This document shows positions 616-41,760 of a stretch of DNA of 64,000 nt, piece by piece. Source of the stretch: Escherichia coli (lineage in GTDB: Bacteria > Pseudomonadota > Gammaproteobacteria > Enterobacterales > Enterobacteriaceae); assembly GCF_003334315.1 (NCBI RefSeq), contig NZ_QOWR01000023.1. The stretch is one strand, 5' to 3'. Position numbers and translations under genes: made by a program. The first letter of the stretch is position 1; each line of letters begins with the position of its first letter. The notes beneath the pieces are model-generated. The model was not told the DNA's origin, made no database searches, and saw only the letters and a program-made list of their open reading frames with translations.

Positions 616-1800
616 TTAACTTTCCCGGCTGGAGAGTGAATCAATGTAATCAGCGTACCATTGCATCATTTCACGGCGGCCATCGAGATACAGGGCATGA
701 TTATAGGTACCCCTGATGGAATTTTTATCCACATGAGCTAACTGCATTTCAATCCAGGCGGAGTTAAAGCCTTGTTCATGCAGAATTGTACTCATGGTGT
801 GTCTGAAACCATGCCCTGTGAGTCTTCCCTTATATCCAAGTAATTCAATTACTTGGTTAATGCTTTCCTTACTAATTGGTTTGCGGGGATCATTTCTACC
901 GATAAAGACTAGGGGATGATGTTTTGAGATTGGTTCAAGCTGCTTAAATAGCATAATAACCTGCTCAGAGAGCGGCACAATATGAGGTCGCTTCATCTTC
1001 ATTACTTCTGCCGGGATCTCCCACAATTTTGTCTCAAAATCGATATCTTCCCAGCGTGCAAAACGCAGTTCTTGTGTTCGTACGCCGGTTAACATAATGA
1101 TCTGAGTAGCTGTCTTAGTGATTATACTTCCGGTATAACCCGCCAGATCGTTGAGGAAGTGGGGAAGTTCATTAGCAGTAAGAAAGGGAAAATGTACTTT
1201 TTTCGGTGTAGCTAAAGCACTGGCAAGATCGGGGGCTGGGTTATAGTCTGCCCGGCCAGTAACAATTGCATAGCGGAACACCTCACCACAGCGCTGGCGT
1301 ACCTTGCGCATTTTCTCCAGAGCTCCACGTTTTTCCATTTTACGCAGTGCTTCCAGTAACTCCATTGGTTTGATTTCGGCAATAGGGCGCTTGCCAATGT
1401 AGGGAAAAATGTCTTTTTCAAAGGTATCAATGATTTCATCACGATAGCGTAATGACCACCGATCGGCTTTTGACTGGTGCCATTCGCGAGCAATAGCCTC
1501 GAACGTATTTTTCAGACTTATTTGCTGCGCGATTTTTTCTTCCTTTTTTGCCTCCCCTGGATCGCCTCCAGCAGCGAGGAGTTTCCTGGCTTCACTGCGT
1601 TTCTCGCGAGCATCGGCTAGCGTTACATCGGGGTATACGCCAATAGAAAGCATCTTTTCTTTACCAGCAAAGCGGTACTTCATGCGCCAGTATTTAGAAC
1701 CATTAGTGTTAATCAGTAGATACATACCGCCGCCATCAGCAAGCTTATAGGGTTTGTCTTTGGGTTTTGCGGTTTTCACTTTGATATCGGTTAATGCCAT
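616..1800 (-). CDS. int: P4-family tyrosine integrase (phage/island integrase), full length 394 aa
   Basis: ORF track 394 aa; N-terminus MALTDIKVKTAKPKDKPYKLADGGGMYL and C-terminal HGFRHT and LAHVDKNSIRGTYNHALY motifs (HxxR and catalytic Tyr) typical of P4-like integrases; sits directly next to the 3' end of a tRNA gene. Confidence 0.95.
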   Translation of the reverse strand: MALTDIKVKTAKPKDKPYKLADGGGMYLLINTNGSKYWRMKYRFAGKEKMLSIGVYPDVTLADAREKRSEARKLLAAGGDPGEAKKEEKIAQQISLKNTFEAIAREWHQSKADRWSLRYRDEIIDTFEKDIFPYIGKRPIAEIKPMELLEALRKMEKRGALEKMRKVRQRCGEVFRYAIVTGRADYNPAPDLASALATPKKVHFPFLTANELPHFLNDLAGYTGSIITKTATQIIMLTGVRTQELRFARWEDIDFETKLWEIPAEVMKMKRPHIVPLSEQVIMLFKQLEPISKHHPLVFIGRNDPRKPISKESINQVIELLGYKGRLTGHGFRHTMSTILHEQGFNSAWIEMQLAHVDKNSIRGTYNHALYLDGRREMMQWYADYIDSLSSRES

Positions 1801-2099: not shown

Positions 2100-2194
2100 T
2101 GGCGGAAGATCACAGGAGTCGAACCTGCCCGGGACCGCTGGCGGCCCCAACTGGATTTGAAGTCCAGCCGCCTCACCGGAGACGACGATCTTCC
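2100..2194 (-). tRNA. selC: tRNA-Sec (selenocysteine tRNA, selC), 95 nt including CCA
   Basis: Minus-strand sequence GGAAGATCGTCGTCTCCGGTGAGGCGGCTGGACTTCAAATCCAGTTGGGGCCGCCAGCGGTCCCGGGCAGGTTCGACTCCTGTGATCTTCCGCCA matches E. coli selC as I remember it; long extra arm and UCA anticodon. Confidence 0.97.
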
Positions 2195-19832: not shown

Positions 19833-20657
19833 CTATTTCTTCTCTGTAATTTTTACACTGTTTTCCAACTGCTTGATGCTGACCTGCGGGGTCGGCAACT
19901 CCTCAGGCATGGTTCCGCCAAGTTCCTGAATGGTTTGCCTCACCTTGCGACCCACGTCAAAGTGTGTGGTGTTTGCTTGCTGTTTTGAATTCACGCCATC
20001 CCGCTTGAGTTTTTCTTCTGTTTGGGTAGCTCGAAAGAGATTAGCCGCCAGTTCTGTTGAACCCATATGATCCAGGATCTTCTGACTCTTTTTCAGCCCC
20101 TTCAGTTGGTGGATGGCTTTCTGATCTAATCCACCATACAGCCCCCGGTAACCATGATTCTGAAATATGGCGAAATCGATAGCTGTCGCTCCCCCAGCTT
20201 GCTGCGCTGCCTCAACCAATTGTTTGTTATGTTCTTTCAATTCATTTCTCAGAAAAAGACGCTTTTCGTCTTCACGAAGTTGCCTGAAAGCTTCATCGTC
20301 AGCCAGCTCCTGCCGTCGGGTCTGGATAGCAAAATAAGTTTGCCCTGCCGCAATAACCGGTTTCGCAGGGTCGCCGTTTTGTACTACCAGGTAACAGGCA
20401 TAGCGGGAGAGATGAACATCTTCAAGTTCTCGTTGAGCCCCTGAACCTAATACAACCATTTTGGTGGTTTCAACGAAATGGTCAGATGCAGCTTGATTGC
20501 TGGCTTCGCACGCTTGAGTCGCGCGGGCCAGTACCTTTTGAAAATTGCGCCAGTCCCGATAATCCAGTAACGGTGCCAATTCTCTAGCTGACCAAAATTC
20601 TTGCCCTTCAGTGCCATAATGCCGTATTTCTTCAAAAGGTTGATGATGTTCGTTCAT
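19833..20657 (-). CDS. dinD: DNA-damage-inducible protein DinD
   Basis: ORF track 278 aa; MNEHHQPFEEIRHYG N-terminus; LexA box upstream. Confidence 0.9.
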   Translation of the reverse strand: MNEHHQPFEEIRHYGTEGQEFWSARELAPLLDYRDWRNFQKVLARATQACEASNQAASDHFVETTKMVVLGSGAQRELEDVHLSRYACYLVVQNGDPAKPVIAAGQTYFAIQTRRQELADDEAFRQLREDEKRLFLRNELKEHNKQLVEAAQQAGGATAIDFAIFQNHGYRGLYGGLDQKAIHQLKGLKKSQKILDHMGSTELAANLFRATQTEEKLKRDGVNSKQQANTTHFDVGRKVRQTIQELGGTMPEELPTPQVSIKQLENSVKITEKK

Positions 20658-20700
20658 TGCCCACTCCATGTGATATCGATTGCAAAGAAAGTAAATCTGT

Positions 20701-20720
20701 AACTGTATTTATATACAGTT
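20701..20720 (-). promoter_or_regulatory. LexA (SOS) box upstream of dinD
   Basis: AACTGTATTTATATACAGTT: perfect CTGT-N8-ACAG palindrome about 45 bp upstream of the dinD start. Confidence 0.75.
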
Positions 20721-20877
20721 GTGAGTATCTCACGTTCTCAGTGTGCTGGGCAAAAAAACATCGCAAAATCTGGAGCAGGCACGCAAAACAGAATTGAAGT
20801 TGCGGGGAAGAAAAATGCCGCTCTGTTTGAGTGGGCGGCATTTGTGAAGGCTGAAAAGTAAGAATTAGTGTTACGAG

Positions 20878-21741
20878 TTACTCAATATTCTGAATCTGCT
20901 CGCGCATCTGCTCAATCAACACTTTCAGCTCGATGGCGGAGTTTGTCACTTCGGCATTGATAGATTTCGACGCAAGAGTGTTCGACTCGCGGTTGAATTC
21001 CTGCATCATAAAGTCCAGACGACGACCAACGGCTTCTTTTTTCTTCAGAATGTTGTAGGTCTCTTTGACATGCGCTTCCAGGCGGTCCAGTTCTTCGGCA
21101 ACGTCAATTCGTTGTGCCAGCAGAACCAACTCCTGCTCCAGACGGTTGTTTTCCAACTGAACCTGAGCATCTTCCAGCTTCGCGACCAGACGCTCACGCT
21201 GCCATTGCAGGATTTCCGGCATATGGGCGCGGACTTTGACCACTTCGGCGGTGACGCCTTCCAGACGCTGCTCGATCAATGCTTTCAGTGCCTGACCTTC
21301 GGTTTCGCGCGCGACAATAAAGTCGTCCAGCGTACCATCCAGCGCCGCGAGAATTTCAGCGGCAATGGCGTCGAGATCCTGCTCCTGGGCTGCCATCACG
21401 CCCGGCCAGCGCAGAATATCAACCGGGTTGATTTCCCCTTCGTCACTCTGCATTTTTACCCAGTTCGCGGCAGTTACCAGCTGTTTAGCCAGTTTTTCAT
21501 TGAGGATCAGCTCACCTTGTGCGCTAACATCTGGCTCATAGCGCAGGGTACATTCCACTTTACCGCGCGTCAGGCGAGAACGAATACGCTCGCGAACGAC
21601 AGGTTCAAGGCTACGGAACTGCTCCGGCAGACGAAAGTAAGTTTCCAGATAACGCTGGTTTACCGAGCGCATTTCCCAGGTTGCGCTCCCCCATTCACCC
21701 TTGATTTCACGCCGGGCGTAGGCGGTCATACTGCGGATCAT
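20878..21741 (-). CDS. yicC: YicC-family protein (stress-induced; YicC endoribonuclease)
   Basis: ORF track 287 aa, same length as K-12 YicC; conserved position divergent from rph. Confidence 0.9.
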   Translation of the reverse strand: MIRSMTAYARREIKGEWGSATWEMRSVNQRYLETYFRLPEQFRSLEPVVRERIRSRLTRGKVECTLRYEPDVSAQGELILNEKLAKQLVTAANWVKMQSDEGEINPVDILRWPGVMAAQEQDLDAIAAEILAALDGTLDDFIVARETEGQALKALIEQRLEGVTAEVVKVRAHMPEILQWQRERLVAKLEDAQVQLENNRLEQELVLLAQRIDVAEELDRLEAHVKETYNILKKKEAVGRRLDFMMQEFNRESNTLASKSINAEVTNSAIELKVLIEQMREQIQNIE

Positions 21742-21867
21742 AGACGTTCCTGTTTATAAAAGGAGAGGTGGAAGGATTATAGCCATCGATGCCTTGTCAG
21801 GATAGGAATAACCGCCGGAAGTCCGTATAATGCGCAGCCACATTTGTTTCAAGCCGGAGATTTCAAT

Positions 21868-22584
21868 ATGCGTCCAGCAGGCCGTAGCAATAATCAGGTG
21901 CGTCCCGTTACCCTGACTCGTAACTATACAAAACATGCAGAAGGCTCGGTGCTGGTCGAATTTGGCGATACCAAAGTGTTGTGTACCGCCTCTATTGAAG
22001 AAGGCGTGCCGCGCTTCCTGAAAGGTCAGGGCCAGGGCTGGATCACCGCAGAGTACGGCATGCTGCCACGTTCTACCCACACCCGTAACGCTCGTGAAGC
22101 GGCGAAAGGTAAGCAGAGTGGACGCACAATGGAAATCCAGCGTCTGATCGCCCGTGCTCTTCGCGCGGCAGTAGATTTGAAAGCGCTGGGTGAGTTCACC
22201 ATTACGCTGGACTGCGACGTGCTTCAGGCTGATGGTGGCACGCGTACCGCGTCGATTACGGGTGCCTGCGTGGCGCTGGCAGATGCGCTACAGAAGCTGG
22301 TGGAAAACGGCAAGCTGAAAACCAACCCGATGAAAGGGATGGTAGCCGCAGTTTCTGTCGGTATTGTAAACGGTGAAGCAATTTGCGATCTGGAATACGT
22401 TGAAGACTCAGCCGCAGAGACCGACATGAACGTAGTGATGACCGAAGACGGGCGCATCATTGAAGTGCAGGGGACGGCAGAAGGCGAGCCGTTCACCCAT
22501 GAAGAGCTACTCACCTTGTTGGCGCTGGCCCGAGGGGGAATCGAATCCATTGTAGCGACGCAGAAGGCGGCGCTGGCAAACTGA
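21868..22584 (+). CDS. rph: ribonuclease PH, full length (no K-12-type frameshift)
   Basis: ORF track; [41 protein letters not shown]; reading frame runs uninterrupted to a stop 6 bp before the pyrE attenuator hairpin. Confidence 0.95.
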
Positions 22585-22589
22585 TTTTT

Positions 22590-22618
22590 AAGGCGACTGA
22601 TGAGTCGCCTTTTTTTTG
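22590..22618 (+). terminator. pyrE attenuator (rho-independent terminator between rph and pyrE)
   Basis: Hairpin AAGGCGACTGATGAGTCGCCTT followed by a run of T, directly after the rph stop. Confidence 0.85.
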
Positions 22619-22649
22619 TCTGTAGAAAAGTAAGATGAGGAGCGAAGGC

Positions 22650-23291
22650 ATGAAACCATATCAGCGCCAGTTTATTGAATTTGCGCTTAGCAAGCAGGTG
22701 TTAAAGTTTGGCGAGTTTACGCTGAAATCCGGGCGCAAAAGCCCCTATTTCTTCAACGCCGGGCTGTTTAATACCGGGCGCGATCTGGCACTGTTAGGCC
22801 GTTTTTACGCTGAAGCGTTGGTGGATTCCGGCATTGAGTTCGATCTGCTGTTTGGCCCTGCTTACAAAGGGATCCCGATTGCCACCACAACCGCCGTGGC
22901 GTTGGCGGAGCATCATGACTTGGACCTGCCGTACTGCTTTAACCGCAAAGAGGCAAAAGACCACGGTGAAGGCGGCAATCTGGTTGGTAGCGCGTTACAA
23001 GGACGCGTAATGCTGGTAGATGATGTGATCACCGCCGGAACGGCGATTCGCGAATCGATGGAGATTATTCAGGCTAATGGCGCGACGCTTGCTGGCGTAT
23101 TGATTTCGCTTGATCGTCAGGAACGGGGGCGCGGCGAGATTTCGGCGATTCAGGAAGTTGAGCGTGATTACAACTGCAAAGTGATCTCTATCATCACCCT
23201 GAAAGATCTGATTGCCTATCTGGAAGAGAAGCCGGAAATGGCGGAACATCTGGCGGCGGTTAAGGCCTATCGCGAAGAGTTTGGCGTTTAA
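22650..23291 (+). CDS. pyrE: orotate phosphoribosyltransferase
   Basis: ORF track; [36 protein letters not shown]. Confidence 0.96.
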
Positions 23292-23327
23292 AGAAACTCG
23301 CCGGATGAAAAGTCATCCGGCGTCATA

Positions 23328-23924
23328 TTACTGCAACTGCGCGGCAATTAGCGGCCAGCGGGCGTCAAAATCATCCGTCGGGCGGTATTTAAATTCGCTG
23401 CGGACAAAACGTGACAGCATACCTTCACAGAAGGCCAGGATCTGGCTTGCCAGCAGGGTTTCATCGGTGGTGTAACCTTCACCCTCACGCATTCTCTTTT
23501 CACGCAATACCTGACGCAGCTGCGCTTCAATACGCTCGAACAGCTGGTTGATACGCCCTTGCAGGCGATCCTGTTCAAACATCAGCGCATGACCAGTGAG
23601 GATGCGGGTCAGGCCAGGATTACGCTCACCAAAACCGAGAAGCAGCAACACAATCAGACGCAGGCGCGCTGTGGTGTCTTTCTCATCTTTCAGAATCAGG
23701 TTGATGCGAGTAATCAGGCTATCTTCGATAAACTCAATCAGGCTATCGAACATGCGGGTCTTACTGGGGAAGTGGCGATACAGTGCCGCTTCGGAAACGC
23801 CGACAGAGGCGGCCAGTTTTGCCGTCGTGATACGTTGGCTTCCATCGCTGGATTCCAGCATCAGCGCCAGAGACTGAAGTATTTCCTCGCGACGGTTCCT
23901 TTTCGCAGTTTGTTTTTCTGCCAT
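23328..23924 (-). CDS. slmA: nucleoid occlusion factor SlmA (TetR family)
   Basis: ORF track; [24 protein letters not shown] start at 23924; TetR-type HTH. Confidence 0.93.
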
Positions 23925-29878: not shown

Positions 29879-30204
29879 AGTAAATAGCTGACTTATGGAT
29901 GTGCTGGGGATTCTATGTATTTAGCTGTGGCTTTACCATTACTTTTCCCGTTTTTGACTTAAATAGCAATTTACCCGCCAATTCTTGCTGAACATCTATA
30001 CTTTTTTTGTATTTTTATGCGATTCATTGATTTCTGCTGTACGTGCAGGAAGGAATCGCAGAGCAACAGTGAAAGAATATGGTTGCTAATGATTTTATTT
30101 GATTGATTTCTTTATTGAAAATCAACAATGTGCTTAAAAATCATTCGGGTCGGATTGCCGCGAAAGAAGTGATACACTAGCGCGTCAATATCAGTGCGGT
30201 ATCA

Positions 30205-30245
30205 GTATTCAGGTAGCTGTTGAGCCTGGGGCGGTAGCGTGCTTT
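30205..30245 (+). promoter_or_regulatory. JUMPstart element with ops site (GGCGGTAGCGTG at about 30229-30240) in the waaQ operon leader; RfaH-dependent antitermination
   Basis: Exact ops consensus GGCGGTAGCGTG about 50 bp upstream of waaQ. Confidence 0.8.
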
Positions 30246-30290: not shown

Positions 30291-31349
30291 GTGGATAAGC
30301 CATTTCGAAGAATTTTGCTCATTAAGATGCGTTTTCATGGGGATATGTTATTAACTACTCCCGTCATTAGTTCGCTGAAAAAAAATTACCCTGACGCAAA
30401 AATCGATGTGCTGCTTTATCAGGACACCATCCCGATCCTGTCTGAAAATCCAGAGATTAACGCGCTCTACGGCATAAAAAATAAAAAAGCAAAAGCCTCA
30501 GAAAAAATTGCCAACTTTTTTCATCTCATCAAGGTATTACGTGCCAATAAGTATGACCTTATCGTCAATCTCACCGATCAATGGATGGTTGCTATACTGG
30601 TTCGCTTATTAAATGCCCGTGTGAAAATTTCCCAGGATTATCATCATCGGCAGTCTGCTTTTTGGCGTAAAAGTTTCACCCATTTGGTGCCGTTGCAGGG
30701 TGGAAATGTGGTGGAAAGTAACTTATCCGTGCTGACCCCATTGGGAGTTGATTCGTTGGTGAAGCAGACAACCATGAGTTACCCGCCTGCAAGCTGGAAA
30801 CGTATGCGTCGCGAACTTGATCACGCTGGTGTTGGACAAAATTATGTGGTTATCCAACCTACGGCGCGGCAAATCTTCAAATGCTGGGACAACGCCAAGT
30901 TTTCCGCTGTGATTGATGCCTTACATGCTCGTGGTTATGAAGTTGTTCTGACGTCCGGCCCAGATAAAGACGATCTGGCCTGCGTCAATGAAATTGCGCA
31001 GGGATGCCAGACGCCACCAGTAACGGCGCTGGCTGGAAAGGTGACCTTCCCGGAACTTGGTGCGTTAATCGATCATGCGCAGCTGTTTATTGGCGTTGAT
31101 TCCGCACCGGCGCATATTGCCGCTGCAGTTAATACGCCGCTGATATCGCTGTTTGGTGCGACAGACCATATTTTCTGGCGTCCCTGGTCAAATAACATGA
31201 TTCAATTCTGGGCGGGAGATTACCGGGAAATGCCAACGCGCGATCAGCGTGACCGAAATGAGATGTATCTTTCGGTTATTCCGGCGGCAGATGTCATTGC
31301 TGCTGTCGATAAATTACTGCCCTCCTCCACGACAGGTACGTCGTTATGA
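30291..31349 (+). CDS. waaQ: LPS heptosyltransferase III WaaQ (GT9); the true start is probably the ATG at 30327 (MRFHGDMLL)
   Basis: ORF track; GT9 heptosyltransferase; first gene after the JUMPstart; stop overlaps the waaG start (ATGA). Confidence 0.9.
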   Translation: MDKPFRRILLIKMRFHGDMLLTTPVISSLKKNYPDAKIDVLLYQDTIPILSENPEINALYGIKNKKAKASEKIANFFHLIKVLRANKYDLIVNLTDQWMVAILVRLLNARVKISQDYHHRQSAFWRKSFTHLVPLQGGNVVESNLSVLTPLGVDSLVKQTTMSYPPASWKRMRRELDHAGVGQNYVVIQPTARQIFKCWDNAKFSAVIDALHARGYEVVLTSGPDKDDLACVNEIAQGCQTPPVTALAGKVTFPELGALIDHAQLFIGVDSAPAHIAAAVNTPLISLFGATDHIFWRPWSNNMIQFWAGDYREMPTRDQRDRNEMYLSVIPAADVIAAVDKLLPSSTTGTSL

Positions 31350-32470
31350 TCGTTGCTTTTTGTTTATATAAATATTTTCCCTTTGGCGGTTTGCAGCGTG
31401 ATTTTATGCGTATTGCTCAGACAGTCGCCGCCCGAGGTCATCATGTTCGGGTTTATACCCAGTCGTGGGAAGGCGAATGCCCTGATGTATTTGAACTGAT
31501 CAAAGTGCCGGTTAAATCGCATACCAATCACGGGCGCAATGCGGAGTATTTTGCCTGGGTGCAAAAACATTTACGCGAACATCCCGTCGATAAAGTCGTT
31601 GGATTCAACAAAATGCCGGGGCTGGACGTTTATTATGCCGCTGATGTTTGTTATGCCGAGAAAGTAGCGCAGGAAAAAGGCTTTTTCTATCGCCTGACGT
31701 CACGTTATCGCCATTATGCCGCCTTTGAGCGGGCAACCTTCGAACAGGGCAAGCCGACACAGCTGCTGATGCTGACAGATAAGCAAATCGCCGATTTCCA
31801 GAAACATTATCAGACTGAAGCGGAGCGTTTTCATATTCTGCCACCGGGGATTTATCCTGATCGTAAATATAGCCAGCAGCCAGCCAATAGCCGTGAAATC
31901 TTCCGTAAGAAGAATGGAATAACCGAACAACAATATTTATTGTTGCAGGTCGGTTCAGACTTCACGCGTAAAGGTGTCGATCGTTCCATTGAAGCACTTG
32001 CTTCGTTACCGGATTCGCTGCGCCACAACACATTGCTATATGTTGTTGGGCAGGATAAACCGCGAAAATTTGAGGCACTGGCAGAAAAACGCGGCGTGCG
32101 CAGTAATGTTCACTTCTTCTCGGGGCGCAACGATGTCTCGGAATTAATGGCGGCGGCGGATTTATTACTGCATCCTGCCTACCAGGAAGCGGCGGGAATT
32201 GTGCTGCTGGAAGCGATTACTGCAGGATTACCGGTACTAACAACTGCCGTTTGTGGCTATGCGCATTATATTGTCGACGCTAATTGCGGCGAGGCTATTG
32301 CTGAGCCATTCCGCCAGGAAACATTGAATGAGATTTTACGCAAAGCGTTAACGCAATCTTCATTGCGCCAGGCTTGGGCGGAAAATGCGCGACATTATGC
32401 TGATACACAAGATTTACACAGTCTGCCAGAGAAAGCGGCGGATATCATAACGGGTGGTCTGGATGGTTGA
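31346..32470 (+). CDS. waaG: LPS core glucosyltransferase I WaaG (GT4)
   Basis: ORF track 374 aa, same length as K-12 WaaG. Confidence 0.93.
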
Positions 32471-33260
32471 ACTTAAAGAGCCGTTTGCCACGTTATGGCG
32501 CGGCAAAGATCCTTTTGAGGAAGTTAAAACCTTGCAGGGTGAGGTATTTCGTGAACTGGAAACTCGCCGTACTCTGCGCTTTGAAATGGCGGGCAAAAGC
32601 TATTTTCTCAAATGGCATCGCGGCACGACCCTGAAAGAGGTAATCAAAAATTTACTCTCATTGCGGATGCCAGTATTAGGCGCTGACCGCGAATGGAATG
32701 CGATTCATCGACTGCGGGATGTCGGCGTTGATACTATGTATGGGGTGGCATTCGGCGAAAAAGGCATGAATCCGCTGACCAGAACCTCGTTTATTATTAC
32801 CGAAGATCTGACACCAACCATAAGTCTGGAAGATTACTGTGCTGACTGGGCGACCAACCCACCAGATGTTCGCGTAAAGCGTATGCTTATTAAGCGTGTC
32901 GCGACGATGGTGCGCGATATGCATGCTGCGGGCATTAATCACCGTGACTGTTATATCTGTCATTTCCTGCTGCACTTGCCTTTTTCCGGTAAGGAAGAGG
33001 AGTTAAAAATTTCGGTAATTGACCTGCACCGGGCGCAGCTTCGCACGCGCGTTCCACGTCGTTGGCGCGATAAAGATCTTATTGGACTTTATTTTTCTTC
33101 GATGAATATTGGCCTGACTCAGCGGGATATCTGGCGGTTTATGAAGGTGTATTTTGCCGCTCCGCTTAAAGACATTCTCAAGCAGGAACAAGGACTGCTG
33201 TTGCAAGCAGAAGCAAAAGCCACAAAAATCAGGGAAAGAACGATTCGAAAATCGTTGTAA
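32463..33260 (+). CDS. waaP: LPS core heptose(I) kinase WaaP
   Basis: ORF track; [21 protein letters not shown]; kinase motif [10 protein letters not shown]. Confidence 0.93.
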
Positions 33261-33302
33261 CCCGTAACTTATTTTTGCCAAAATTTTGGATACAGAATAA
33301 AT

Positions 33303-34310
33303 ATGTCTCAACTCAATGATAGTGACATCATCCTTTTTGAGTATAATTTTCATTATCAAAATATAAGATCTAAAAATACTCTTGATATAGCATTTGGTAT
33401 TGACAGAAATTTTCTTTTTGGATGTGGTGTAGCCATCGCATCTATTCTATTAAACAATAGAGAAATCTCTTGTGAATTTCATGTTTTCACAGATTATATC
33501 AGTGATAAAGACAAATTATATTTTTCTGATTTAGCAAAACAATATAATTCAAGAATTAATATTTATGTTATCAATTGTGATAAGCTGAAGTCATTACCAA
33601 GCACGAAAAACTGGACTTACGCAACATATTTTCGATTTATAATTGCAGATTATTTCTATCATAAACATGAAAAAATACTATATCTTGATGCAGATATTGC
33701 TTGCAAGGGTAGTATTAAAGAACTCTTAGATTATCAATTTTCTACTAATGAAATTGCCGCAGTTGTAGCTGAAAGAGATGTTGAATGGTGGCAAAATCGA
33801 GCCTCGGTATTAACTACACCACAGTTAGCTTCTGGATATTTCAATGCTGGTTTTTTACTGATAAATATTGATGAGTGGAATCTAAATAACATTTCGTCAA
33901 AAGCTATTGAAATGTTGCGTGACCCAGATTGGGTAAGTAAAATCACCCACCTTGATCAAGATGTACTGAATGTATTATTGAATGGTAAAGTGAAGTTTAT
34001 TTCGGAGAAATATAATACCCGATATAGTATTAACTATGAATTAAAAGACAAAGTTGATAATCCAGTCAATGATGACACCGTGTTTATACACTATGTGGGA
34101 CCTACAAAACCCTGGCATGAGTGGGCTGACTATCCGGTGTCACGTAGTTTTTTGATCGCCAAAGCAGCTTCTCCGTGGAGTAAAGAAGATTTACTTAAAC
34201 CTGTAAATAGCAATCAGTATCGGTATTGTGCAAAACATAAATTTAAACAAAAGCATTATATGGCAGGCATTTTTAATTATTTAAAGTATTATAAAGAAAA
34301 ATGCTTCTAA
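33303..34310 (+). CDS. waaI: outer-core GT8 glycosyltransferase, R3-type WaaI (UDP-galactose:(glucosyl)LPS alpha-1,3-galactosyltransferase)
   Basis: ORF track 335 aa; GT8 DxD motif LYLDADIA; AT-rich; position after waaP as in the R3 locus. Confidence 0.75.
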   Translation: MSQLNDSDIILFEYNFHYQNIRSKNTLDIAFGIDRNFLFGCGVAIASILLNNREISCEFHVFTDYISDKDKLYFSDLAKQYNSRINIYVINCDKLKSLPSTKNWTYATYFRFIIADYFYHKHEKILYLDADIACKGSIKELLDYQFSTNEIAAVVAERDVEWWQNRASVLTTPQLASGYFNAGFLLINIDEWNLNNISSKAIEMLRDPDWVSKITHLDQDVLNVLLNGKVKFISEKYNTRYSINYELKDKVDNPVNDDTVFIHYVGPTKPWHEWADYPVSRSFLIAKAASPWSKEDLLKPVNSNQYRYCAKHKFKQKHYMAGIFNYLKYYKEKCF

Positions 34311-34335
34311 AGATTTAAGGTTAAAATAATTCATT

Positions 34336-35043
34336 ATGATATATAATAAAACGATAAATGGGTTGAAAGTTTTCATAAAAGATAATGATCCCTTTTATGA
34401 GCAAGTTCTAAATGACTTTTTAACTTGCAGGGTTAAAACATTAAAAGTTTTTCGTTCTATTGATGATACTAAAGTCATTCTTATTGACACTGCTCGTGGA
34501 CCTCTTGTACTTAAAGTTTATGCGCCAAAGCATAAAATGACCGAACGTTTCTTAAAATCTTGCATAAAAAAAGATTATTATGAAAATTTAATTTATCAAA
34601 CCGATCGGGTACGTGGTGAAGGCATCCAATCAATTAATGACTATTTTTTGCTAGCTGAACGTAAAACATTAAATTTCGCTCATTATTATATTATGCTCAT
34701 TGAGTATATTGAAGGTGTCGGGTTAAATGAGTATTTGGAAATTTCTGAAGATCTGAAGGATCAATTATCAGAATCGATAAAAGAGTTGCATCAGCATGGA
34801 ATGGTGTCTGGCGATCCTCATAAAGGAAATTTTATAGTATCCGAAAAAGGTTTAAGACTAATTGACCTTTCAGGTAAAAAAACAACCGCTGTTTTAAAAG
34901 CAAAAGATCGCATTGATCTTGAACGGCACTATAATATAAAAAATGAATTGAAAGACTTTGGCTATACATATCTTATATTCAAAAAGAAAATTAAAAAAGT
35001 AATCAGGGATGTAAAAGTCAAACTAGGATTGAAGAGCAAATAA
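34336..35043 (+). CDS. waaY: LPS core heptose(II) kinase WaaY
   Basis: ORF track 235 aa; Kdo/WaaP-family kinase fold (GDPHKGNF); AT-rich. Confidence 0.8.
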   Translation: MIYNKTINGLKVFIKDNDPFYEQVLNDFLTCRVKTLKVFRSIDDTKVILIDTARGPLVLKVYAPKHKMTERFLKSCIKKDYYENLIYQTDRVRGEGIQSINDYFLLAERKTLNFAHYYIMLIEYIEGVGLNEYLEISEDLKDQLSESIKELHQHGMVSGDPHKGNFIVSEKGLRLIDLSGKKTTAVLKAKDRIDLERHYNIKNELKDFGYTYLIFKKKIKKVIRDVKVKLGLKSK

Positions 35044-35067
35044 TGATTATGATGAAGGGTAATTAAA

Positions 35068-36081
35068 TTGGATTTTAAACATCTTACTCAATTTAAAGAT
35101 ATAATTGAACTGGACAAGCGCCCCGTTAAACTTGATGAACGGGAAACGTTTAATGTCTCATGGGGTATTGATGAGAACTACCAGGTTGGGGCTGCGATTT
35201 CAATTGCTTCAATTCTTGAAAATAATAAACAAAACAAATTTACCTTTCACATAATCGCTGATTACTTAGACAAAGAGTATATTGAATTATTATCACAATT
35301 AGCAACGAAGTATCAAACAGTAATTAAATTATATCATATTGATTCTGAGCCATTGAAGGCGCTACCTCAATCAAATATCTGGCCAGTATCTATTTATTAT
35401 CGTTTGCTTTCATTTGATTATTTTTCTGCGCGATTGGATTCATTATTATATCTTGATGCTGATATCGTCTGTAAGGGTTCATTGAACGAGTTAATAGCAT
35501 TAGAGTTTAAAGATGAATATGGGGCAGTGGTAATTGATGTAGATGCTATGCAAAGTAAAAGCGCTGAGCGTTTGTGTAATGAGGATTTTAACGGTAGCTA
35601 TTTTAACTCTGGTGTAATGTATATTAATTTACGGGAATGGTTAAAACAAAGACTAACGGAAAAATTCTTTGATCTATTATCAGATGAGTCAATTATAAAA
35701 AAATTAAAGTACCCGGATCAAGATATTTTAAACTTAATGTTTCTACATCATGCTAAAATATTACCGAGAAAATATAATTGTATTTATACTATAAAGTCAG
35801 AATTTGAAGAAAAAAATAGTGAATATTACACCCGGTTTATTAATGATGACACTGTCTTCATACATTATACTGGTATAACTAAGCCATGGCATGATTGGGC
35901 GAACTACGCCTCTGCAGATTATTTTCGTAATATTTATAATATATCACCATGGAGAAATATACCTTATAAAAAAGCTGTTAAAAAACATGAGTACAAAGAA
36001 AAATATAAACACTTGCTTTACCAGAAAAAATTTCTCGATGGTGTTTTTACAGCAATTAAATATAATGTTATGAAAGGTTAA
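35068..36081 (+). CDS. waaJ: outer-core GT8 glycosyltransferase, R3-type WaaJ (alpha-1,2-glucosyltransferase); TTG start
   Basis: ORF track 337 aa; GT8 motif LLYLDADIVCKG; paralogous to the preceding GT8 gene. Confidence 0.72.
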   Translation: MDFKHLTQFKDIIELDKRPVKLDERETFNVSWGIDENYQVGAAISIASILENNKQNKFTFHIIADYLDKEYIELLSQLATKYQTVIKLYHIDSEPLKALPQSNIWPVSIYYRLLSFDYFSARLDSLLYLDADIVCKGSLNELIALEFKDEYGAVVIDVDAMQSKSAERLCNEDFNGSYFNSGVMYINLREWLKQRLTEKFFDLLSDESIIKKLKYPDQDILNLMFLHHAKILPRKYNCIYTIKSEFEEKNSEYYTRFINDDTVFIHYTGITKPWHDWANYASADYFRNIYNISPWRNIPYKKAVKKHEYKEKYKHLLYQKKFLDGVFTAIKYNVMKG

Positions 36082-36089
36082 TATACGAG

Positions 36090-37232
36090 ATGGTTGATAA
36101 AATAATATTTACGGTTACTCCTATTTTTTCAATTCCTCCTCGCGGAGCGGCTGCTGTTGAAACGTGGATGTATCAGGTTGCTCAGCGTACCAATTTTCCA
36201 AATCGTATTGTTTGTATCAAAAATCCAGGATACTCAAATTACACCTTTGTTAATGATAATTGTAGTATTCATAGGGTTGGATTCAGTCGCATATATAAGC
36301 GGTTATTTCAAAAATGGACAAGACTTGATCCTCTTCCATATTCACAGAGAATATTGAATATTGCACATGATTTTCCTATAACGAAAGAAAGTGTTATTGT
36401 AGTTCATAATAGCATGAAGCTATACACTCAAATTCGTAAGCGAGCTCCTCAGGCAAGAGTGGTTATACATATGCATAATGCATTTGAACCAAAATTGCTT
36501 GAGCAAAATGTTAAAATGATAGTGCCTAGTTTATACTTGAAAAAGTATTACCAATCTTATTTAGCAAATGCAGATATTGAGATTGTACCAAATGGAATTG
36601 ATTTAGAAACCTATCAATCTAATTTTCAGCCGATCACTAGAAGCGAACTTAATATCTCCCCTGAAGAGAAAATTATTTTTTATGCTGGGCGTATCGTCCC
36701 TGACAAAGGCATATTGCTGTTGATGCAATCATTCGAAAAATTGGCCGCTGCTCACAAAAATTTAAAATTAGTTGTGATTGGTGATTATACAGAAATGAGT
36801 AAAAGTGACAAAGGTACATATCAACGCAATGTCAGGGAAATTGCAAAACGTTTGAAGGATCGTTGCATTATGTTAGGAAGCATACCGCCTGAAAAGATGC
36901 ATTGTTATTACCCACTGGCAGATTTAGTCGTCATTCCTTCCCAGTTCCAGGAACCATTTTGCATGGTGGCAATTGAAGCTATGGGTGCTGGTAAGCCTGT
37001 TTTAGTGAGTACGCGTGGGGGGATGACGGAATTTGTCAAAGAAAATACAACGGGATTCCATTTAAAAGAACCTATGACTGCAGACTCCATAAGCAGCGAT
37101 ATTTTAAAAACGTTAGCGAATCCTGAATTAACAGCAGTTGCAAAGCAAGGTCAGGACTTTGTGTTTGATCACTACAGTTGGGATGGCGTAACTCAAAGAT
37201 TCGAAGAGGTTATTCATAATTGGTTTGAATAA
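36090..37232 (+). CDS. waaD: GT4 glycosyltransferase, R3-type WaaD (terminal outer-core hexosyltransferase)
   Basis: ORF track 380 aa; GT4 EX7E motif EPFCMVAIEAMGAGKP; last gene of the waaQ operon, convergent with waaL. Confidence 0.7.
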   Translation: MVDKIIFTVTPIFSIPPRGAAAVETWMYQVAQRTNFPNRIVCIKNPGYSNYTFVNDNCSIHRVGFSRIYKRLFQKWTRLDPLPYSQRILNIAHDFPITKESVIVVHNSMKLYTQIRKRAPQARVVIHMHNAFEPKLLEQNVKMIVPSLYLKKYYQSYLANADIEIVPNGIDLETYQSNFQPITRSELNISPEEKIIFYAGRIVPDKGILLLMQSFEKLAAAHKNLKLVVIGDYTEMSKSDKGTYQRNVREIAKRLKDRCIMLGSIPPEKMHCYYPLADLVVIPSQFQEPFCMVAIEAMGAGKPVLVSTRGGMTEFVKENTTGFHLKEPMTADSISSDILKTLANPELTAVAKQGQDFVFDHYSWDGVTQRFEEVIHNWFE

Positions 37233-37234
37233 AT

Positions 37235-37264
37235 AAAAAGGCCGCATTATGCAGCCTTTTTTAT
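37235..37264. terminator. bidirectional rho-independent terminator between convergent waaD and waaL
   Basis: AAAAAGGCCGCATTATGCAGCCTTTTTT: imperfect hairpin flanked by A-run and T-run. Confidence 0.6.
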
Positions 37265-37267
37265 TTT

Positions 37268-38476
37268 TTACTTGTTTTTCATCGCTAATAATAAGCCGGC
37301 GTAAACGCCTAATAAATTTGGTTCAATTTGTTCTACGTTTCCACGGATAACAAAATAACCTATAAAAGATAGTAAGATTATATAATATGCATTATATGGT
37401 GAGCGATATTTATTCTTGACGCCATTTTTTATACACTCTTTCAATATTGCACAGTATAGCATCATAAGACTTACCAGCCCTAATAAACCAGTGCCAAACC
37501 AGATGAATAGCGCAAAATTATGTGGCCCTATTGATTGTCTAAAGGTCCATTCTGGATAATCAATGACACGTTTATTATAGACATCTTTATATGCAACGTT
37601 ACCGTAACCATAACCAATAACAGGATTTTCTAATATTAGATCGAGTGCGCTGCCTTGAGTACCATTTGCATAGCGATAAGAACTATTAGTTTGTTGAAGT
37701 TTATACGTTAGCTTTGCGGTCATCTCCTTATGTGTGAAAATAACCGACAATGCAATGATGGCAACCATTACTCCTACTAATAGTAACTTCCATTGTTTAA
37801 ACATCAGAATCCATATTAATCCAATGACTAACACGGAAAGCCAGGCCCCTCTGGATAAAGTTCCTAATATCAGAAAAATAAAAATAACGCTTAGAACCAC
37901 AAAAGAAATGCGGTATTTTGCTGATTTGATAAGCCAGAGATTTAACAATGCAGGGAATAAAAAGACCATCGAGTCAGAAATGCTACGGTGTCTATAATCT
38001 GCGAATGGCATTATCCCTTGTTGATAGTCCTTATAATAGGTAATCAATTCAGAAAAACAGCGTAAGCCCAACGCACTAATAAATGAGAAGAAAACGATTT
38101 TTTCGACATCTTCTCTTTTCTCGTCTCTCAATATGATCGGTATTGCTATTGTGCATAGTAAAGTATTCTCAATAATAGCTTTGAAAATTTCCTTCATGCT
38201 AGCACCTGCATCAGGGGATTGAAGAAGTGACAGCAATGCAGCAATAGTTAATATGGCAACACTACCAAAAAGAAATGTTTTAAATAGTGAGAGATAGTGT
38301 TTTGGCCGTTTGCAGAGATAGACGATTGTCGTTATTGTCATAAGAATAACAATAAGATGTTTATACCTTGTAATCCCACCCAAAAAATAGGTGGTAATGA
38401 ATAAGAATACGAGAGCTCTGTTCCAGTACGCTATCCAGTTTTTTTTCTCGAGAGAGAAAAATAATGTTGAGGTCAT
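37268..38476 (-). CDS. waaL: O-antigen ligase WaaL
   Basis: ORF track 402 aa; polytopic membrane protein, very AT-rich; convergent with the waaQ operon, upstream of waaC. Confidence 0.85.
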   Translation of the reverse strand: MTSTLFFSLEKKNWIAYWNRALVFLFITTYFLGGITRYKHLIVILMTITTIVYLCKRPKHYLSLFKTFLFGSVAILTIAALLSLLQSPDAGASMKEIFKAIIENTLLCTIAIPIILRDEKREDVEKIVFFSFISALGLRCFSELITYYKDYQQGIMPFADYRHRSISDSMVFLFPALLNLWLIKSAKYRISFVVLSVIFIFLILGTLSRGAWLSVLVIGLIWILMFKQWKLLLVGVMVAIIALSVIFTHKEMTAKLTYKLQQTNSSYRYANGTQGSALDLILENPVIGYGYGNVAYKDVYNKRVIDYPEWTFRQSIGPHNFALFIWFGTGLLGLVSLMMLYCAILKECIKNGVKNKYRSPYNAYYIILLSFIGYFVIRGNVEQIEPNLLGVYAGLLLAMKNK

Positions 38477-41457: not shown

Positions 41458-41760
41458 AACTGTAACCTTCGAATTATGGAGTCAGAGACAATCTCAGACA
41501 CGAATGTCTGTAATCATACCATCACATCCGAATCCCTTCAGCCCTTTACATAGAGGTGCAAGGATGCTAATTGCAACAAACTAGTTTGGGTTTTAGCTAG
41601 TCCTTCATGGCGGATGTTGGTTTTGCATGTGAATAGTGCTTTAGTATCAATATTCCGATGTATGATAAATAACGGAAGCATTTGAATGGATAATATACAG
41701 TATACATTCTATTAATATTTATGATATAATTCTTTTTTTATATTAATGGTCTTATTAGTA

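Follow-up and report, generated by a model that had tools for sequence, protein, structure and literature searches.

The rph-pyrE locus of an Escherichia coli strain without the rph-1 frameshift of K-12 MG1655 and W3110

Is the rph gene of this Escherichia coli strain translated right up to the attenuator that precedes pyrE, or does it stop short of it as in K-12 MG1655 and W3110, and what does the answer say about the control of pyrE and the origin of the strain? In the stretch of 64,000 nucleotides analysed here (the window), the locus is almost certainly that of a natural E. coli strain whose rph-pyrE operon is of the ordinary wild type, with a full-length RNase PH and a UTP-sensitive attenuator. 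This intact arrangement is already known, being the classic wild-type form of a much-studied operon.

The rph gene occupies positions 21868..22584 of the plus strand, its frame being open from the ATG at 21868 to the native TGA stop codon at 22582-22584, which corresponds to 238 amino acids. Gene order at the locus is yicC / rph-pyrE / slmA, with yicC (20878-21741) upstream of rph and on the opposite strand. The protein matches TIGR01966, the NCBIfam equivalog profile for RNase PH, with 381.1 bits against a curated cut-off of 141.5 bits, and its residues 2-236 cover profile positions 1-235 of 236. Among solved RNase PH structures, 1R6L aligns with residues 2-237 (E = 3e-103), across the C-terminal segment that is absent in rph-1, and alignments were also obtained with 1OYP, 3B4T, 3DD6 and 1UDN. 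In CP53, a near-identical genome that is collinear with the window and gap-free over 1542-40000, the PGAP annotation calls rph at identical coordinates. These data point to a full-length RNase PH, for which phosphorolytic 3′-5′ exoribonuclease activity is predicted. The range assigned to rph in the preliminary description begins at the rph ATG and includes one base of pyrE, its end coordinate, 22650, being the A of the pyrE ATG.

The one-base deletion known as rph-1 affects a run of G close to the 3′ end of rph. The single length difference in the alignment lies at this site, where the window has five G (22534..22538, plus strand) and MG1655 and W3110 only four. The gene is annotated in MG1655 as ‘truncated RNase PH’ (687 nt) and in W3110 as a frameshifted pseudogene. 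In silico removal of one G from the window yields a 228-amino-acid product with the tail ...ARGESNPL, as in the MG1655 translation; it ends at a TAG (22553..22555, plus strand) that is out of frame and silent in the window. Neither the four-G run nor the 228-amino-acid product of the rph-1 lesion was found in the window when it was aligned with the two K-12 genomes. The preliminary description had claimed that the MG1655-type frameshift is missing here and had proposed an alignment of the rph 3′ end with MG1655 and W3110 as the check; that alignment bears the claim out, since the single-base deletion of MG1655 is not shared by the window.

The same description had rph reading through to a stop just in front of the attenuator hairpin, and the coordinates agree with this. 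The pyrE attenuator is an intrinsic terminator at 22590..22617 on the plus strand, recognized by terminator scan, by folding and by identity to K-12. Its hairpin, AAGGCGACT-GATG-AGTCGCCTT (22590-22611), has a stem of 9 bp (22590-22598 / 22603-22611) with a G+C core at 22592-22598 / 22603-22609 and a GATG loop. A T8 tract (22610-22617) adjoins the hairpin and overlaps it by two T, which double as stem-closing bases. Five T (22585-22589) form the 5-nt gap between the native TGA and the stem. The predicted folding energy is -15.8 to -17.3 kcal/mol (z = -6.0 and -4.0 against shuffled sequences). With its CC and T8, the element has the canonical K-12-type form; the stretch 22539-22665 is identical to MG1655, W3110 and JM109 in the alignment, and the rph-pyrE spacer (22585-22649) has no difference from MG1655. 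A permissive Rfam scan of 21600-23400 matched no family to the pyrE attenuator. RyhB scored 24.5 bits on the hairpin (E = 0.097) against a gathering score of 55; this was attributed to chance similarity with a terminator stem-loop.

On the promoter side, the yicC-rph intergenic region (21742..21867, plus strand), which should hold the rph-pyrE promoter or promoters, is 100% identical to MG1655 (no differences), to O157:H7 F8797 and to CD306. It contains a perfect TATAAT at 21826-21831 without a good -35 hexamer at 16-18 nt, and for this reason no promoter was assigned upstream of rph: no site there passed a simple sigma-70 scan, the -35 element failing in each case. Downstream of the attenuator, GAGGAG (22637..22642, plus strand), 7 nt before the ATG and conserved in all aligned lineages, is the likely Shine-Dalgarno sequence of pyrE. 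The pyrE gene (22650..23291, plus strand) encodes an orotate phosphoribosyltransferase of 213 amino acids (TIGR00336, 240.6 bits); its 14 nucleotide differences from MG1655 (2.2%) are all synonymous and the protein is identical. Between the convergent pyrE and slmA genes, a strong, G+C-rich hairpin of 10 bp at 23299-23322, scored by the terminator scan on the minus strand, is likely to be a 3′ end structure common to the transcripts of both genes.

The way in which such an operon responds to pyrimidines has been worked out in E. coli K-12. According to passages of PMC11148124, PMC2784333, PMC5933015 and PMC9997739 that cite Bonekamp 1984, Andersen 1992 and Jensen 1993, read-through past the intercistronic terminator needs a ribosome at the end of rph close behind RNA polymerase at the time when low UTP slows the polymerase; for the published mechanism and phenotype, passages of the same four sources go back to Jensen 1993 and Bonekamp 1984. 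Applied to the window, this scheme would make translation of rph double as ‘leader’ translation for the UTP-sensitive attenuator before pyrE. When UTP is scarce, RNA polymerase would slow down and the ribosome on the end of rph would trail it closely; on reaching the TGA at 22582-22584 it would cover the 5′ arm of the hairpin (22590-22598), no terminator would form and transcription would proceed into pyrE. When UTP is plentiful, the polymerase would run ahead, the hairpin and U-tract would form and transcription would stop. In MG1655 and W3110, where one G is lost, translation would end 29 nt earlier and never reach the hairpin, giving constitutively high termination and low PyrE.

The geometry of the locus fits this scheme. 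A ribosome is known to cover about 12-15 nt beyond its A-site codon in the downstream direction. On this basis, a ribosome at the native TGA would extend to ~22594-22596, where it would overlap the 5′ arm of the stem and block the hairpin; one at the TAG of rph-1 would extend only to ~22566 and leave more than 20 nt between itself and the stem. Since the promoter-side intergenic region and the rph-pyrE spacer are identical to the experimentally studied K-12 sequence and the stop codon is 5 nt from the hairpin, it is reasonable to infer that pyrE attenuation would work normally in this strain.

One alternative to the ordinary wild-type operon accepts an intact rph but supposes that attenuation or RNase PH function is nonetheless altered, either by an amino acid replacement or by synonymous changes at the 3′ end of the gene that affect ribosome pacing; it is judged very unlikely. 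The replacement in question is Gly84Ser in RNase PH, due to an A in place of G at position 22117 (plus strand) and private to the window in comparison with CP53, MRE162, O157, CD306 and K-12. The 80-mer of the window around this position, and with it Gly84Ser, has no exact match in any of the 5,407 complete E. coli genomes searched, the best of which have one mismatch, and the rph-pyrE stretch as a whole has no 100% match in the database, 99.9% being the highest identity. The altered residue also sits two positions before a conserved GRT segment. Against a functional effect stands the fact that the equivalent residue is Ser in the solved enzymes of B. subtilis (1OYP) and M. tuberculosis (3B4T) and Thr in the protein of 3DD6, on account of which Gly84Ser is probably neutral; alternatively, it may be a base-call error. 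Moreover, the attenuator senses translation through to the stop codon, which a missense change leaves intact, and Gly84Ser touches neither the reading frame nor the attenuator.

As for ribosome pacing, two of the rph differences between the window and K-12 (ACC/ATC and GCG/GCT) fall within 30 nt upstream of the G-run. Codon changes near the 3′ end of rph could in principle alter the speed of the ribosome by the attenuator, but synonymous alleles in this part of the gene occur in other wild lineages too, and in the alignment the ACC/ATC and GCG/GCT alleles are common to other natural lineages. The narrower proposal that Gly84Ser lowers RNase PH activity, and thereby naturally separates loss of the nuclease from loss of pyrE read-through, is improbable. 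If it were true, the strain would split two effects that are confounded in rph-1. Because Ser is native in the RNase PH of Bacillus and Mycobacterium, a neutral replacement or a base-call error is much more likely than reduced activity.

The comparison with CP53 places this replacement among few others. Over 38 kb, the two sequences differ at six single bases (6018, 22117, 22920, 25105, 32640 and 36816). All of them are transitions, and five have A or T in the window and G or C in CP53. A mutator, mutagenesis or sequencing error are candidate causes. Several of the six may be private to this strain, since more than a dozen genomes tie in their match to the window over 15000-39900.

Elsewhere in the window, two regions deserve description before the origin of the strain is considered. 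The gene for tRNA-Sec (selC, 2100-2194, minus strand) is flanked by an intact tyrosine integrase of 394 amino acids (616-1800, minus strand; domain match to NF007246 with 317 bits, below the cut-off of that profile) and the end of an IS1 element (1-204). This integrase and IS1 arrangement occurs in 648 genomes; at the selC flank, MG1655 has a different sequence and the integrase of CP53 is truncated by IS1. The second region is the operon for the lipopolysaccharide core (30291-38476), in which rfaQ-waaG-rfaP-waaO-rfaY are followed by one gene for a glucosyltransferase and one for a GlcNAc-transferase; rfaL is encoded on the opposite strand. The gene set is a candidate for the R3 core type. At 30203-30241, ahead of rfaQ, there is a JUMPstart RNA element (RF01707, 55.2 bits), as expected for the leader of the waaQ operon. 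Further along, CP53 carries an IS5 between rfaD and yibB (window ~41597-41600) that is absent from the window and from MG1655.

From the intact rph, the preliminary description had concluded that this DNA does not come from a K-12 laboratory derivative. The conclusion stands, but the step that led to it does not: an rph+ gene alone does not exclude K-12, because the K-12 strains JM109 and GM4792 and the ‘K-12 MG1655’ genome CP010445 have an intact rph of 717 nt encoding WP_001247096.1. In the literature, rph+ is likewise listed for JM83, JM109 and XL1-Blue, and WG1 is reported to be without the mutation (PMC11148124, PMC9997739). The window could accordingly be imagined to derive from an rph+ K-12 laboratory strain, that is, from a lineage in which rph-1 never arose, JM109 and WG1 being examples, or from an MG1655 with the lesion repaired. 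Besides the existence of such strains, this origin is favored by the flanks of the window, which at 2-18 kb and 50-64 kb diverge from MG1655 by only 0.02-0.08%.

The rest of the comparison with K-12 contradicts it. Within rph itself, the window differs from the K-12 gene by 11 substitutions and the indel (12 differences, 1.7%), and its protein differs from the K-12 rph+ protein at four residues (84, 138, 172 and 216). Identity to MG1655 is 97.2% over 2085-32412. Across 2085-63444 the divergence forms a strong mosaic, rising from the low values of the flanks to 0.4-2% over most of 19-50 kb. It peaks in dinD (19833-20669), at 13.8% against the K-12 allele and mainly within 20000-20750, and in rfaQ and waaG, at 20-31%. 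In the outer-core segment at 32.4-38.6 kb, the match to K-12 is 64-77% or lacking; the K-12-type outer-core genes waaS, waaB, waaO, waaJ, waaY, waaZ and waaU were not found in the comparison of the window with MG1655. The outer-core waa genes that the window does have (33.3-37.25 kb) are without K-12 counterpart; their identity to the genes of O157:H7 strains is 99.8%, and 25% of complete genomes (1,364 of 5,426) have them. The selC flank, with its intact integrase and IS1, is not K-12 sequence either. For dinD, it may be added that in the list of open reading frames, another ATG in the same frame precedes the annotated start by 12 nt.

Even the K-12-like flanks carry too many differences for a laboratory derivative, the left flank having 13 over 16 kb and the right flank 3 over 13.4 kb. 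These 16 differences in ~30 kb exceed the ~2 per 30 kb that would be expected of XL1-Blue, which, with 345 substitutions per genome, is the K-12 strain with the heaviest mutagenesis on record. Finally, the 25 kb at 15000-39900 match many isolates from pig, chicken, human and frog with only about six mismatches, more than a dozen database genomes being tied at the same score. An rph+ K-12 origin was therefore rejected on the waa, dinD, selC and single-nucleotide evidence, and its probability is judged to be minimal. The differences in rph, the divergence of dinD, the O157-type core, the selC flank and the isolate matches together argue that the DNA is not that of a K-12 laboratory derivative. 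Given flanks almost identical to MG1655, the strain appears to be a natural E. coli closely related to K-12 in which a recombined block at ~19-50 kb, centred on the waa locus, is diverged.

How exceptional an intact rph is can be judged from the complete E. coli genomes, 5,425 of 5,426 of which have the rph-pyrE locus. The MG1655 80-mer across the G-run matches 5,357 genomes, and the exact rph-1 form is found in 167 of these (3.1%). In an evenly spaced sample of 60, the other 58 genomes all span one base more than rph-1. Five G and the same stop position were seen by alignment in O157:H7 F8797, NCTC86, CD306, PM06121, C289, MRE162 and CT01, as well as in the rph+ K-12 strains. Intact rph is thus the common state, present in ~97% of sequenced E. 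coli, and MG1655 and W3110 are the exception. That the extra G is a homopolymer error of sequencing or assembly in a strain truly frameshifted in rph has next to no probability, even though such runs are error-prone on some technologies and the lengths of the C and T runs in the neighbouring attenuator vary between assemblies, because five G is the state of the great majority of genomes, obtained in many laboratories and on many platforms, of every natural lineage aligned and of the more than a dozen independent genomes that match the window over 25 kb, G-run included, with about six mismatches.

Over the part corresponding to window 22603-22640, the attenuator varies naturally in length among other E. 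coli. Spacers 1 nt shorter, with one C or T missing at the junction of the hairpin and the T-tract, occur in ~8 of 60 genomes in a sample. A four-G run was at first suspected in the non-K-12 genomes with spans of 1001 bases and was rejected, as their rph is intact and it is the spacer that is 1 nt shorter. The attenuators of C289 and MRE162 are without one C, with a predicted stem of -13.8 versus -15.8 kcal/mol; that of CT01 has seven T, that of NCTC86 has one C fewer and seven T, and PM06121 is missing 5 nt downstream of the terminator. These variants may change the basal expression of pyrE or may be homopolymer errors.

Two practical consequences follow for the use of this strain and of rph as a marker. 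Since the rph-pyrE arrangement of this natural E. coli is standard, the strain is not expected to show the pyrimidine-limitation artefact of MG1655 and W3110. Because rph+ is found in several K-12 lineages, the status of rph alone is no guide to whether a sequence is K-12.

Compared with known systems, the locus is closest to the rph-pyrE operon of wild-type E. coli, in which a UTP-sensitive attenuator lies between the two genes, as presented in passages of PMC5933015, PMC10087573 and PMC11148124 that cite Bonekamp et al. 1984, Andersen et al. 1992 and Jensen 1993: gene order, the 238-amino-acid RNase PH, the stop codon 5 nt before the hairpin, the spacer and the upstream intergenic region are the same. 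Relative to the wild-type operon of K-12, the differences are allelic only, namely the 11 substitutions in rph (4 amino acids against the rph+ protein) and the 14 synonymous ones in pyrE. The rph-1 form of K-12 MG1655, W3110 and EMG2 shares the locus, the attenuator and the pyrE protein with the window, but it has four G, a 228-amino-acid inactive product and a stop codon 34 nt from the hairpin, whereas the window has five G and a stop codon 5 nt away. The leader attenuator of pyrBI in E. coli works on the same principle, a ribosome behind a UTP-starved polymerase preventing an intrinsic terminator upstream of a pyrimidine gene. The pyrBI operon uses a short dedicated leader peptide for this purpose, while the ‘leader’ of pyrE is the 3′ end of rph, a complete enzyme gene.
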